NCBI RefSeq assembly: GCF_023954335.1
Contig: NZ_JAMLIE010000005.1
Span: 30,965 to 94,964 of the forward strand
Length of the DNA stretch: 64,000 nucleotides
From: Aquamicrobium sp.
GTDB taxonomy: Bacteria; Pseudomonadota; Alphaproteobacteria; Rhizobiales; Rhizobiaceae
Direction of reading: 5' to 3'
Shown: piece by piece, positions 9,563 to 17,621 of the stretch
How positions within the stretch are numbered: position 1 is the first letter of the stretch
How the letters are laid out: each line of letters opens with the position of its first letter
Position numbers and translations under genes: made by a program
Notes under the pieces: model-generated
Told to the model about the DNA's origin: nothing
What the model saw: the letters and a program-made list of their open reading frames with translations, nothing else
Databases searched by the model: none

Positions 9563-10663
9563 CTAGTTCTCCAGATAGTCGTACTTGCCGGCCTTCCACT
9601 CGTAGATGACGTAGCCGGGCAGCTTGACGTCGCCCTTGTCGTCGAAGCCCGACTCGCCGAGCACGGTCTTGAAGGTGCCTTCGTTCAGCGCCTTGACCAC
9701 CGCGTCGAACTCGGTCGTGCCGGCGGTGTTGGCCGCCTCGGCCCAGGCCTGCACCGAGGCGTAGGTGTAGAGCACGTAGCCTTCCGGCTCGACGCCCTTG
9801 GCACGGAACTGCTCGACCAGCGGCGCGGCGTCCGGGTTCTTGCGCGGGTCGGGCGAGAAGGTCATCAGCGTGCCTTCGCCGGACTCGCCGGTGATCGCCC
9901 AGTATTCCTCCGTCGTCAGGCCGTCGCCGGACATCAGCACCGTGTCCATGCCCTGCTCGCGCATCTGGCGGGCGATCAGCCCGGCCTCGGTGTGGTATCC
10001 GCCGACATGCAGCACGCCGACGCCCTCGGCCTTCAGCTTGGAGACGAGCGCGGTGTAGTCCTTCTCGCCGGCGGTGTAGGCCTCGTAGAGCGCCGGCTTG
10101 CCGCCCGCCGCCTCATAGGCCGCCATGGTCGCGTCGGCGAGGCCCTGGCCGTAGGCGGTCTTGTCGTGGATGAACGCCACCTTCTTGTCCGGGAACCGCT
10201 CGTGGATGAACTGGCCGGCGATCTCGCCCTGCTGGTCGTCGCGGCCGCACATGCGGAAGATGCCGGGGCCGGGGCGCTCGTCGGTATAGACCGGGTTGGT
10301 CGAGGCCGGCGAGATCTGGATGATGCCTTCCTCGGCATAGACGGCCGAGGCCGGGATCGACGAGCCCGAGCAGAAATGGCCGGCGACGAGGACGACGCCG
10401 GAGCCCGCGAACTGGTTGGCGACCGCGACAGCCTGCTTCGGGTCGCAGGCGTCGTCGCCGATCTCGAGCTTCAACTGCTCGCCATTGACGCCGCCGGCGG
10501 CGTTGATGTGCTCGACCGCGAGCTCGGCGCCCGCCTTCATCTGCGCGCCGAACGAGGCGTACTGCCCGGTCATCGGACCGGCGGTGGCGATCTTGATCTC
10601 GGCCCAGGCCGGACCGGCGACGACGACGCCCAGCATGGTGCTGGCTGCAAGAATCCGTTTCAT
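9563..10663 (-). CDS. Branched-chain amino acid ABC substrate-binding protein (LivJ/LivK type), without permeases in window
   Basis: Signal peptide, AGPMTGQYASFG, DDACDPKQAVAVA, GHFCSGSSIPAS, DKTAYGQGLA. Confidence 0.93.
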   Translation of the reverse strand: MKRILAASTMLGVVVAGPAWAEIKIATAGPMTGQYASFGAQMKAGAELAVEHINAAGGVNGEQLKLEIGDDACDPKQAVAVANQFAGSGVVLVAGHFCSGSSIPASAVYAEEGIIQISPASTNPVYTDERPGPGIFRMCGRDDQQGEIAGQFIHERFPDKKVAFIHDKTAYGQGLADATMAAYEAAGGKPALYEAYTAGEKDYTALVSKLKAEGVGVLHVGGYHTEAGLIARQMREQGMDTVLMSGDGLTTEEYWAITGESGEGTLMTFSPDPRKNPDAAPLVEQFRAKGVEPEGYVLYTYASVQAWAEAANTAGTTEFDAVVKALNEGTFKTVLGESGFDDKGDVKLPGYVIYEWKAGKYDYLEN

Positions 10664-10739
10664 GTCCACTCCCATTGGCACCTTCTCCTGAGGTGCGGCG
10701 CCGGCGGGTGCCTTCTCCCGGCGGCCGCAATCCATTGCG

Positions 10740-12371
10740 CTACCGCTCGCCCCGGTCGAAGGTGCCGGGGCCGGGCCCCTTCTTCTTCAGCTCGGTGCGG
10801 GCGATCTTCTCGGTCGGGGTCCGCGGCAGCGGCGCATCGACGATCTCGATGTAGCGCGGCACCATGTGCCGCGGCGCGTGGGCGCGGAAATGGGCGAGGA
10901 GGCCGGCGGCATCGACGGCCGAGCCCTCGCGCCGCATCGCCACGACCATGATGTCCTCCTCGGTGAACTCGGACGGCACGCCGAACGCCGCGCTCTCGAC
11001 GATGTCGGCATGGGCCTCGGCGACGTGCTCGACCTCGTAGGCCGAGATGTTCTCGCCGCGCCGGCGGATCGCCTCGTTGAGGCGGTGGCGGAAATGGAGC
11101 CAGCCGTCCTCGTCCATGAAGCCGGCATCGCCCGAGTGATACCAGAGGTTGCGCAGGGTCTGCACGGTGCGCGCCTCGTCGCCGTAATAGCCGGAGAACA
11201 TGGTCCAGCTCTTCCTCGGCCGGGCGACGATCTCGCCGACCGTGCCGGGCGGCAGCGGATTGTCGGCCTCGTCGACGACCGCCACCTCCCAGTCGGGATG
11301 GGGCCGCCCGCACGCGCCCGGCTTCGTCTCGTCGACGGTGTCGAGGGTGACAAAGCTGGTCTCGGTCTGGCCGTAGCCGGTGACGAGCCGCATGGCGAAG
11401 CGGCGCTCGAACGCCGCCTTGTCCGGCACCATGGGGATGCACTGGGCGACGCGCACGGGATTGCCGGCGTCGTCGGCGCACTCGGGCATCTTCATCAGGA
11501 TGGCGGCCATCGCGCCGAGGAGGTTGGTCGCCGTCGCGCCGCTGGCGCGGACCTCGCCCCAGAACCGGCTGGCGCTGAAGCGCTCGACCAGCGTCGCCCG
11601 CGTGCCGTGGATCAGCGGCAGGTAGACGCCGAACATCTGCGCGTCGGTGTGGAACAGCGGCAGCGGCGAGAAATAGCTGTCCGCGCCGGTGTAGCCGAGA
11701 TTCATCGCCATCGCCGCCGCCCAGGAATAGCAATGGTGATGCGACATCAGCGCGCCCTTGGCCGGCCCGGTCGTGCCCGAGGTGTAGAGGATCGCGATCG
11801 GGTGCGAGTAATGGACGTCGACCGGGTCGAGATCGGCGCGCGGCGACAGGCATTCGCCGAAGGCGACGACCCGGCCGACCCTCACGCCCGCCGCGCGCGC
11901 GTCGGCCGCATCGCCGTCGACCACGACGAGGGTGCGAAAAGAGGGAAGGCGCGCCTCGACCTTCGCGATCTCGTCCAGCACGCTCGCATGGGCGATGACG
12001 AGACCGGCGCCGCACTTGCCGATGTTATGGCAGAGGAAATCGCCCTTCAGCTCCGGGTTGATCGGCACCTCGATGGCGCCGAGCGCCGACAGCGCGAACC
12101 ACGACAGGACGCAATCCATGCCGTTGGGCAGGACCATCGCCACGCGGTCGAACTGGGCGACGCCGAGCGCGCGCAAGCCGTTGGCCAGACGGCTGGAGAG
12201 GGTGAACATCTCCTCGAAGCTCGCCGTGCGGCCGCATATGTCGATGAACGGCGCCGCGCCCAGCCGCTCGGCCTGAAGGCGCAGGATCTTCGGCAGAACC
12301 CGGTTGTCGATGTCGTCGTGCCCGCCGGGGACGAGCGGCACGGAGGGGATGTCGGCGAGGTCGATCCGCAC
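10740..12371 (-). CDS. ATP-dependent acyl-CoA ligase (CaiC-like)
   Basis: AMP-binding YTSGTTGPAKG, GYGQTE, WYHSGD, RRRGENISAYEVE, TPTEKI; GTG start 2 bp after the crotonase stop. Confidence 0.9.
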   Translation of the reverse strand: MRIDLADIPSVPLVPGGHDDIDNRVLPKILRLQAERLGAAPFIDICGRTASFEEMFTLSSRLANGLRALGVAQFDRVAMVLPNGMDCVLSWFALSALGAIEVPINPELKGDFLCHNIGKCGAGLVIAHASVLDEIAKVEARLPSFRTLVVVDGDAADARAAGVRVGRVVAFGECLSPRADLDPVDVHYSHPIAILYTSGTTGPAKGALMSHHHCYSWAAAMAMNLGYTGADSYFSPLPLFHTDAQMFGVYLPLIHGTRATLVERFSASRFWGEVRASGATATNLLGAMAAILMKMPECADDAGNPVRVAQCIPMVPDKAAFERRFAMRLVTGYGQTETSFVTLDTVDETKPGACGRPHPDWEVAVVDEADNPLPPGTVGEIVARPRKSWTMFSGYYGDEARTVQTLRNLWYHSGDAGFMDEDGWLHFRHRLNEAIRRRGENISAYEVEHVAEAHADIVESAAFGVPSEFTEEDIMVVAMRREGSAVDAAGLLAHFRAHAPRHMVPRYIEIVDAPLPRTPTEKIARTELKKKGPGPGTFDRGER

Positions 12372-12373
12372 GG

Positions 12374-16662: not shown

Positions 16663-16748
16663 GCCCGGCCTCCCCGTTCTTCACATCTTTCGCAGAAGCG
16701 TAGGGCTTGATGCGAAGTTAGTAAAATTGATAATGTTCGGCTCAAGGT

Positions 16749-16763
16749 ATCAATGGAACTGAT
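16749..16763. promoter_or_regulatory. LTTR recognition box
   Basis: ATCA-ATGGAAC-TGAT (T-N11-A with dyad symmetry) directly before the LysR ATG, in the dgdA divergent region. Confidence 0.6.
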
Positions 16764-17621
16764 ATGAAGACGCCCCTCGACCTGCGCCTGCTGGCGACTT
16801 TCGTGCAGGTGGCCCGCTCCGGCTCGATCAGCGCGGCGGCGCTTCAGGTCGGCCGCACCCAGTCGGCGGTGACGATGCAGATGCAGAAGCTGGAGCAGCT
16901 GTGCGGCCAGGGCCTGCTGCACCGCGGCGGCACCGGCGTGCGGCTGACCAGCGGCGGCGAGCGGCTGCTCGACTATGCCGAGCGCATGCTGAGCATCCAC
17001 GACGAGGCTGTCTCGGCCTTCTCCAGCGACGGCCTGCGCGGCACCATCGTCTACGGCAGCCCCGAGGACTACCTGATCGCCTTCTTCCCGACCCTCCTGA
17101 AGAGCTTCGGCCGCATGCACCCCGATGTCGAGATCAGGGTTGTCGCCGCGCCGACCGACCAGTTGCGCAAGCTGCTGCACCTGAAGCAGATCGACGTCGG
17201 GCTGGTCTCGGTCCCCACCTGGACCGAGGCCGACGACATCGTCCGCACCGAGCCGCTGGTGTGGGTCGGCTGGCAGCCGACGCTGGCGCTGCACAATTTC
17301 GGCGCTGTGCTGCCGCTGGCGCTGTCGGCCTCCAACACCATGGACCACAAGGCCGCCTGCGACGCGATGGCCCGCGCCGGGCTGCGCTACCGGATCTCGC
17401 AGGCCAGCAACAGCCTCGCCGGGCTGATCGGCGTCACCCGCTCGGGCCTCGCCATCTCGGTGATGACGGAAAAGGCGGTGCCGCCGGACCTGCACATCCT
17501 CGGCGCGCCCCTGCCGCCGCTGCCCAGCCTCGGCGTCGAGATCGCCTATCCCGAGGTCGAGCCCTCGGCCGCGACGCGCGCCTTCGGCAACCATATCCGC
17601 CAGCTCCTGCCCTCGCTCTAA
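16764..17621 (+). CDS. LysR regulator divergent from dgdA (DgdR-like)
   Basis: HTH LDLRLLATFV...GRTQSAVTMQMQKLE; the arrangement matches the known dgdR/dgdA pair. Confidence 0.88.
   Translation: MKTPLDLRLLATFVQVARSGSISAAALQVGRTQSAVTMQMQKLEQLCGQGLLHRGGTGVRLTSGGERLLDYAERMLSIHDEAVSAFSSDGLRGTIVYGSPEDYLIAFFPTLLKSFGRMHPDVEIRVVAAPTDQLRKLLHLKQIDVGLVSVPTWTEADDIVRTEPLVWVGWQPTLALHNFGAVLPLALSASNTMDHKAACDAMARAGLRYRISQASNSLAGLIGVTRSGLAISVMTEKAVPPDLHILGAPLPPLPSLGVEIAYPEVEPSAATRAFGNHIRQLLPSL

Follow-up and report, generated by a model that had tools for sequence, protein, structure and literature searches.

A 64,000-nt stretch of the Aquamicrobium sp. genome (GCF_023954335.1, contig NZ_JAMLIE010000005.1, positions 30,965-94,964 of the forward strand), here called the window, carries a predicted operon in which dgdA, the gene of a 2,2-dialkylglycine decarboxylase, is followed by hcmB and hcmA, encoding the two subunits of an adenosylcobalamin (AdoCbl)-dependent mutase of the 2-hydroxyisobutyryl-CoA mutase (HCM) type, and then by genes for a crotonase (ech), an acyl-CoA ligase and a periplasmic binding protein, all opposite a LysR-type regulator resembling DgdR. 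The DgdA family and the HcmAB clade, to which these genes belong by sequence, are already known, and it is their fusion in one operon that appears to be new. We rate the chances as roughly even that these genes form a catabolic operon under DgdR control which serves alpha,alpha-disubstituted (tertiary-carbon) C4/C5 acids, and in which the mutase arm acts on the hydroxy analogues and DgdA on the amino analogues. The host genome (4.55 Mb) is 100% complete. Genes were called from the open reading frame listing and its translation, domains were assigned with Pfam and NCBIfam, and coordinates refer to the window unless another contig or locus is named.

Conservation of the operon behind the dgdR-dgdA unit

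Six co-oriented genes with a LysR gene opposite had been described in the initial annotation, and both this layout and its intergenic distances were recovered in the open reading frame listing and junction sequences, the gaps from dgdA to the binding-protein gene being 38, -4 (an ATGA overlap), 10, 2 and 76 bp. Terminator-like sites were absent from the intergenic gaps of the operon, the sole minus-strand match falling within the ligase gene. Because the gaps range from -4 to 76 bp, no terminator intervenes and relatives show 4-bp overlaps (see below), dgdA through the ligase or binding-protein gene is predicted to be one operon, co-transcription being judged from spacing and synteny. The hairpin beyond the binding-protein gene (Table 1) probably marks the end of the transcription unit.

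A scan of species-representative genomes returned 79 loci. Altogether, 54 loci combine dgdA, hcmB, hcmA, ech and the ligase gene, and they represent at least seven families of Alphaproteobacteria (Phyllobacteriaceae, Rhizobiaceae, Brucellaceae, Xanthobacteraceae, Parvibaculaceae, Paracoccaceae and Roseobacteraceae). The order of a LysR gene divergent from dgdA-hcmB-meaH-hcmA-ech-ligase was seen in Mesorhizobium, Aminobacter, Pseudaminobacter, Phyllobacterium, Chelativorans, Sinorhizobium medicae, Shinella, Rhizobium, Pararhizobium, Hoeflea, Brucella (Ochrobactrum), Labrys, Parvibaculaceae, Pseudogemmobacter and Roseovarius sp. 217. In these relatives meaH overlaps both hcmB and hcmA by 4 bp, and in Mesorhizobium dgdA/hcmB and ech/ligase also overlap by 4 bp. 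Plasmids or megaplasmids carry the operon in S. medicae (including WSM419), Shinella and one S. meliloti strain, and when metagenomes were scanned with the ligase, all contigs of sufficient length to reveal neighbouring genes had the dgdA-hcm operon. Since it recurs in 54 loci, the dgdA-mutase arrangement is far beyond chance, and the synteny that the initial annotation had named as a check on its proposal proved strongly conserved. Public annotation names of the operon genes are generic, and the searchable literature contained no paper linking dialkylglycine decarboxylase with 2-hydroxyisobutyryl-CoA mutase, in agreement with the earlier remark that no such linkage had been described.

DgdA aligned over its full length with the crystallised Burkholderia cepacia DgdA (1D7R/1DGD/1DKA) at 679 bits, compared to ~220 bits for the next family. 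The alignment to 1D7R spans residues 1-431, and Gln52, Trp138, Met141, Ser215, Lys272, Arg406 and the K+ loop/site are all kept. The protein is, judging by this alignment, an orthologue of the crystallised enzyme, with decarboxylation-dependent transamination of 2-aminoisobutyrate as its predicted activity; DgdA accepts isovaline too. As in the B. cepacia dgdR-dgdA system, which has a LysR repressor, the orthologous enzyme with its complete active site faces a divergent LysR gene across a dyad operator. The T-N11-A box that the initial annotation had ascribed to the LysR gene was seen here as the dyad ATTGATA-N15-TATCAAT, a form of which is present in 52 of 55 related dgdR-dgdA intergenic regions, so that dgdA stands beside a divergent LysR-type DgdR with a shared candidate operator. 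A sigma-70-like match at 16707-16734 (+) overlaps the dyad. Identity of the regulator ranges from 60 to 71% in hcm-linked loci (99% in L058, a 96% relative of the window) and from 52 to 70% in stand-alone dgdR-dgdA pairs.

Such pairs were found in four genomes, where a DgdA 71-82% identical to that of the window lies alone beside the divergent LysR gene. The pair in L093, the closest to that of the window, retains the dyad, and its dgdA is followed by a gene on the opposite strand; the pair in L094 nearly keeps the dyad. No hcm-type gene lies downstream of dgdA in these alphaproteobacterial stand-alone units, whereas dgdA leads five to six further genes in the operon described here. An even sample of 401 alphaproteobacterial genomes contained a DgdA-like gene in 30, the Aquamicrobium genome among them, and none of the other 29 had a mutase of the Val90 clade defined below: 28 had only matches at the level of methylmalonyl-CoA mutase (MCM; <=47%), and G164 had one 57% match. 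Because stand-alone pairs exist without HcmA and L093 keeps the dyad, dgdR-dgdA appears to be a self-sufficient unit behind whose promoter the mutase genes were set.

Table 1. Features of the dgdA-hcm locus (positions in the window)
Feature	Position	Strand	Description
DgdR-like LysR-family regulator	16764..17621	+	HTH_1 and LysR_substrate domains; divergent from dgdA
Operator-like dyad ATTGATA-N15-TATCAAT	16726..16754		In the 101-bp dgdR-dgdA intergenic region
dgdA, 2,2-dialkylglycine decarboxylase (pyruvate), 436 aa (predicted)	15352..16662	-	Aminotran_3; B. cepacia DgdA orthology
hcmB, small B12-binding subunit, 154 aa (predicted)	14849..15313	-	PF02310; DGHDRG = DxHxxG motif; 4R3U small subunit is best PDB match
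hcmA, large substrate-binding subunit, Val90 subclade (predicted)	13134..14852	-	MM_CoA_mutase; best match 4R3U_A
ech, crotonase-fold enoyl-CoA hydratase, 249 aa (predicted)	12374..13123	-	ECH_1, 162 bits
ANL-family acyl-CoA ligase, 543 aa, GTG start (predicted)	10740..12371	-	AMP-binding and AMP-binding_C domains
Periplasmic Atu2422/LivJ-type small-amino-acid binding protein, 366 aa, signal peptide (predicted)	9563..10663	-	Peripla_BP_6; 3IP5 match
Stable hairpin, 11 nt past the binding-protein stop	9522..9552	-	10-bp GC-rich stem, -31.9 kcal/mol, z = -3.5, no T run

Some features lie around the operon. A Dpp/Opp-type peptide ABC transporter (SBP_bac_5, two permeases and two ATPases) at 3989-9421 (+) is convergent to the binding-protein gene and is not kept next to the operon in relatives. 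No cobalamin riboswitch was found, the only above-threshold Rfam match in the window being a thiamine pyrophosphate (TPP) riboswitch at 56715-56817 (-; 74.8 bits). In some Mesorhizobium strains, genes for an ATP-dependent hydantoinase A/B and an AraC regulator lie directly upstream of dgdR (L083:259-5155), which is compatible with a feed of 5,5-dialkylhydantoins; the hydantoinase genes are not conserved in other genera and were rejected as part of the system.

The mutase, the loss of its chaperone gene and its partner enzymes

HcmA scored 737 bits against 4R3U_A, compared to 459 for MCM and 236 for IcmF, and the best PDB match of HcmB was the 4R3U small subunit (139 bits); 4R3U is the Aquincola 2-hydroxyisobutyryl-CoA mutase. 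In the phylogeny the large subunit grouped with Aquincola HcmA, apart from the MCM of the Aquamicrobium genome, and the HcmA-clade assignment made initially was upheld: by alignment and tree placement, HcmAB belongs to the 2-hydroxyisobutyryl-CoA mutase clade. The ATG start of hcmA overlaps the hcmB stop, and Met residue 10, an alternative start, aligned with the start of 563-aa relatives.

The variant active site reported earlier (RQV, STDFD and AQK) was confirmed in the motifs TIRQVAGFG, LSTDFD and YVAQKEW, which give Val/Asp/Gln compared to Tyr/Ala/Arg in the genome's own MCM. Val99, Asp126 and Gln217 correspond to residues 90, 117 and 208 of Aquincola-type HcmA, whose numbering is used below; Ile90, Asp117 and Gln208 of that enzyme have roles in the substrate pocket, with residue 90 at the position of MCM Tyr89. 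The Asp117 and Gln208 equivalents are invariant across all 59 members of the subclade to which the mutase belongs, and so is Val90, which is also without exception in homologues >80% identical. Residue 90 is Ile in Aquincola HcmA and in 19 of 20 homologues at ~60% identity, the exception being L063 (Val). This Val90 crown clade has 100% support in the Shimodaira-Hasegawa-like approximate likelihood ratio test (SH-aLRT) and a long stem (0.6 substitutions per site); 33 changes define it, some of which are pocket-adjacent (M87I, I90V, M124L, I201P, I246L, E248D and A249V). The dgdA-linked members are basal within it, and nested among them is a branch of 12 gammaproteobacterial sequences, mostly Steroidobacteraceae (98% support). 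The initial annotation had read the valine as a sign that the enzyme of this locus takes a new substrate, a use that found no support, since the residue is shared by the whole subclade, by L063 with its canonical context and by the nested branch linked to lyase and 3-hydroxyacyl-CoA dehydrogenase (Hbd) genes, and is thus no marker of this locus. Residues that might separate the dgdA-linked from the nested, lyase-linked mutases were also considered; only 2 of 572 columns discriminate, neither in a known pocket motif, so the mutase carries no sequence signature of an amino substrate.

The initial annotation noted that no MeaB/MeaH chaperone gene lies in the window, which was confirmed and extended: none was found anywhere in the genome. 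A meaH gene (MeaB family, ~331 aa) lies between hcmB and hcmA in 49 of the 54 related operons, and the five without it are the window, L058, L029, L111 and L112. In the window, L058 and L029 the hcmB stop and hcmA start share a single ATGA, which is the junction expected from loss between two overlapping junctions; the loss of MeaH therefore has the look of a precise, lineage-specific deletion between overlapping stop/start junctions, not of a trait of the system. Compared to L058, the ratios of nonsynonymous to synonymous substitution rates (dN/dS) are 0.09-0.23 for all seven genes (regulator, 0.085; hcmB, 0.086; hcmA, 0.17), indicating purifying selection, and the genome encodes a CobA-type adenosyltransferase. 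On both grounds the operon appears to be in use without MeaH, in which case the mutase of this lineage would work without the chaperone. The same genome contains an intact fused MCM (C5:93064-95067, L001; 722-aa frame), yet no MeaB-family G-protein, which is unusual for an MCM-bearing alphaproteobacterium.

The crotonase aligned with the 3-hydroxypropionyl-CoA dehydratase 5ZAI and with enoyl-CoA hydratases, the Glu residues of its GGALE and FPEVGYG motifs matching those of GGGLE and LPEINLG in 5ZAI, presumably the catalytic pair of that enzyme. Orthologues 48% identical to it accompany hcmA both in L063 and in the L181 mutase-lyase cluster, and its association with hcmA in hydroxy-acid clusters is old. 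The ligase has an AMP-binding_C rather than an AMP-binding_C_2 domain and is thus not a PaaK-type HCL; its best NCBIfam match, PRK06155, was below the cut-off. A 68%-identical copy adjoins a 2-hydroxyacyl-CoA lyase gene in Sphingosinicella instead of the usual ligase, and the corresponding position in other lyase clusters is occupied by a gammaproteobacterial-type ligase. Since either type sits beside the lyase, the two ligase families look like functional replacements.

The binding protein matched Atu2422 of Agrobacterium tumefaciens (3IP5), which binds gamma-aminobutyrate and short amino acids, at 405 bits and keeps the Phe77 gate that restricts ligands to small amino acids (GHFCSG vs GHFNSG). 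An amino-acid ligand is predicted. Unlike Atu2422, the protein is the product of an orphan gene that closes a catabolic operon. Most related loci have a LivK-type gene at <=10 kb, usually only ~50% identical to the window copy. Paralogues 83% and 86% identical were observed elsewhere in the genome (C4:439773-440870 and C9:2-664, respectively), so the operon copy seems to have arisen by recent duplication of a gene for a general amino-acid binding protein.

Val90 mutases also occur in clusters of other composition. L063, sister of the crown clade, has the order GntR-hcmB-PaaK ligase-meaH-hcmA (Val90)-ech followed by a short-chain dehydrogenase/reductase gene. At L063:12753-15362, after this cluster, are genes for a cytochrome P450 and two flavin reductase-like proteins, which may form a module that oxidises a tert-alkyl compound upstream of the mutase pathway. 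The nested gammaproteobacterial branch is without dgdA, the crotonase and the window-type ligase; where contigs show the neighbourhood, its loci carry a TPP enzyme scoring 469 bits to 7PT1 (5/12), another ANL ligase (5/12), meaH (12/12) and Hbd (3/12). The 7PT1 structure is that of the actinobacterial 2-hydroxyacyl-CoA lyase, which cleaves 2-hydroxyisobutyryl-CoA. The lyase orthologue, ANL ligase and hcmB-meaH-hcmA (Val90) stand together in Steroidobacter flavus (L036:6881-19209), L027, L030, L038 and L041, the dehydrogenase joining them in L036, L038 and L041, often with M19 dipeptidase/amidohydrolase genes near. Lyase, mutase and dehydrogenase are the set proposed for anaerobic acetone activation, found in the L036-type clusters within aerobes.

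In Sphingosinicella one locus reads DgdA-like (58%)-hcmB-meaH-hcmA-ech-M19 and a second (L097:39-5615) amidase-M19-ligase-lyase, the ligase being the 68%-identical copy mentioned above. The Gemmatimonadales locus L181 has LysR and ech genes divergent from lyase-S15-hcmA (48%, Val90)-hcmB-ligase-thioesterase-meaB. Near the lyase-ligase pairs of L097, L179 and L181 lie amidases, M19, S9 and S15 peptidases, an amino-acid permease or a class-III aminotransferase, neighbours that hint at an acid released from an amide or peptide-like precursor. The class-III aminotransferase beside the L179 lyase was considered as a DgdA and ruled out at 24% identity.

Function of the operon and competing explanations

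The combined evidence supports the initial view of a genuine operon for 2,2-disubstituted short acids, and within it the mutase arm most likely still converts 2-hydroxyisobutyryl-CoA, perhaps also its C5 homologue, to a 3-hydroxyacyl-CoA. The lyase and Hbd contexts of near-identical enzymes point to interconversion of 2-hydroxyisobutyryl-CoA and 3-hydroxybutyryl-CoA as the most likely activity, and we keep the hydroxy-acid assignment chiefly because the lyase, the mutase and both ligases have 2-hydroxyisobutyryl-CoA as their shared metabolite. The operon would have arisen when an hcmB-[meaH]-hcmA-ech module and a replacement CoA ligase were placed directly downstream of dgdR-dgdA. In the proposed pathway, 2-aminoisobutyrate or isovaline would enter, aided by the Atu2422-like binding protein, and induce the operon through DgdR; DgdA would turn the amino acid, together with pyruvate, into acetone or butanone, CO2 and L-alanine, capturing the nitrogen. 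In parallel, the ligase would thioesterify 2-hydroxyisobutyrate, and perhaps 2-hydroxy-2-methylbutyrate, and AdoCbl-dependent HcmAB would move the thioester carbon, forming 3-hydroxybutyryl-CoA or the C5 product. Interconversion of 3-hydroxyacyl-CoA and enoyl-CoA by the crotonase would then lead into beta-oxidation and polyhydroxybutyrate metabolism. A shared natural source would be the simplest explanation for co-regulation of the amino and hydroxy branches, and bacteria seem to handle both forms of branched acids together.

Several observations weigh against this proposal. No known reaction joins the products of DgdA (ketone and alanine) to the mutase arm, which leaves the DgdR co-regulation unexplained, and regulator, leading gene and binding protein alike indicate an amino acid, not a hydroxy acid. 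The PaaK-type HCL and GntR are both replaced, which could reflect a change of acid substrate. The crotonase would be dispensable for (S)-3-hydroxybutyryl-CoA, since an Hbd homologue is encoded elsewhere in the genome. Adjacency of the ligase to a lyase was seen in a single genome, and of the three HCMs characterised as of a 2024 paper none is from the Val90 subclade (PMC11599936).

The mutase could instead be specialised for five-carbon acids, Val90 and the clade-specific changes enlarging the pocket for 2-hydroxy-2-methylbutyryl-CoA, the thioester of isovaline's hydroxy analogue. The long stem of the crown clade, its 33 defining changes, several close to the pocket, and the acceptance of isovaline by DgdA are in keeping with this, and the C5 thioester is turned over by the actinobacterial lyase as fast as the C4 one (PMC7176365). 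Ile to Val is, however, a small change, L063 has the same Val in a canonical HCL cluster, and the Hbd neighbour of the nested branch fits either chain length, so that we regard such specialisation as unlikely.

Somewhat more doubtful still is a route on the amino acid itself, in which the ligase makes 2-aminoisobutyryl-CoA, HcmAB rearranges it to 3-aminobutyryl-CoA with Asp117 paired to the ammonium group, and the crotonase frees ammonia to yield crotonyl-CoA, DgdA being a parallel nitrogen-scavenging branch. Placement of the whole operon behind the DgdR operator and dgdA, the accompanying amino-acid binding protein and the replacement of HCL and GntR would all be accounted for, and the crotonase would be essential here while it is dispensable for 3-hydroxybutyryl-CoA. 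A carbon-salvaging branch would also pay, as acetone carbon from DgdA may be lost: the genome has no lyase/Oxc orthologue (see below), and no acetone carboxylase gamma subunit was detected in it by a search whose control was likewise silent. If true, the Val90 HcmAB would be a B12-dependent aminoacyl-CoA mutase, either solely or besides another activity, and rhizobia could assimilate the carbon of 2-aminoisobutyrate or isovaline from fungal peptaibols, with DgdA a nitrogen-only branch. Yet no pocket residue sets these enzymes apart from those of the lyase/Hbd-linked nested branch, and '2-aminoisobutyryl-CoA' occurs in no paper of the searchable literature. We know of no crotonase-fold beta-aminoacyl-CoA ammonia-lyase. 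The 48%-identical crotonases in hydroxy-acid clusters and the partnership of the same ligase family with 2-hydroxyacyl-CoA lyase favour 2-hydroxyisobutyryl-CoA over its amino counterpart.

Recapture of acetone was also considered, whereby acetone from DgdA and formyl-CoA would be joined by a lyase or synthase to 2-hydroxyisobutyryl-CoA for HcmAB and the crotonase, as in Desulfococcus biacutus. Relatives of the mutase and ligase are clustered with the lyase in Steroidobacteraceae, Gemmatimonadales, Sphingosinicella and metagenomes, and acetone activation by a lyase-mutase combination has been put forward (PMC7176365). No TPP enzyme is encoded in the operon, however, and an unlinked lyase or Oxc feeding acetone to the mutase was sought and rejected: the own genome lacked an orthologue of either, its best TPP enzymes being ~30% identical and acetolactate-synthase-like, and so did ten other operon-bearing genomes. 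Since the route requires a lyase, we consider it very improbable. Finally, the idea that dgdA and the mutase genes are independent neighbours brought together by chance has hardly any credibility, for although each module occurs alone elsewhere and 38 bp separate dgdA from hcmB in the window, the same order in 54 loci of at least seven families and on plasmids, the 4-bp dgdA/hcmB overlaps of relatives and the lack of a terminator in the gap all oppose it.

Relation to known systems and significance

Compared to the HCL-HcmAB-MeaH system of Aquincola tertiaricarbonis L108 and Methylibium petroleiphilum PM1 (4R3U), which is accompanied by GntR, the operon has in common the split AdoCbl subunits, Asp117, Gln208, a ligase gene in the operon and, in relatives of the window, meaH between the subunit genes. 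It differs in having Val instead of Ile at position 90 with 33 further clade-defining changes, a different ANL ligase lineage instead of the PaaK-type HCL, and a DgdR-type LysR instead of GntR; dgdA is the first gene, the crotonase is fixed downstream and meaH is deleted in this lineage. The HCL and lyase route of Actinomycetospora chiangmaiensis (7PT1) shares the 2-hydroxyisobutyryl-CoA intermediate, and relatives of the ligase and mutase adjoin lyase orthologues, whereas no lyase is present in the operon or genome described here. The acetone pathway of D. biacutus, with a TPP enzyme, an RcmAB-like mutase and a 3-hydroxybutyryl-CoA dehydrogenase, likewise links acetone chemistry to a 2-hydroxyisobutyryl-CoA mutase, but that mutase is of another lineage, the organism is an anaerobe and the ketone comes from the medium rather than from DgdA.

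Both 2-aminoisobutyrate and 2-hydroxyisobutyrate have a quaternary alpha-carbon that places them beyond the attack of ordinary enzymes, and fungal peptaibols are a source of the former. Until now each system had been studied apart, DgdA in Burkholderia and HCM in fuel-oxygenate degraders. In legumes, cyanogenic glucosides give acetone cyanohydrin, which nitrile-hydrolysing enzymes convert to 2-hydroxyisobutyrate (PMC2847961). It is our speculation that legume cyanogenic glucosides and fungal peptaibols may form a shared source of the hydroxy and amino acids.

The operon defines an HCM subclade with Val90, adds to the 2-hydroxyisobutyrate pathway a second family of ligases that is not HCL, and offers a natural HCM operon and an MCM genome without a G-protein chaperone gene, which is useful for engineering 2-hydroxyisobutyrate or methacrylate routes. 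Widespread and partly plasmid-borne, it brings the two systems together under DgdR control in Mesorhizobium, Sinorhizobium medicae, Shinella, Aminobacter, Brucella/Ochrobactrum and marine Roseovarius. The fusion implies that soil and rhizosphere contain a shared pool of natural substrates, and it is a concrete lead on what HCM does in pristine habitats.

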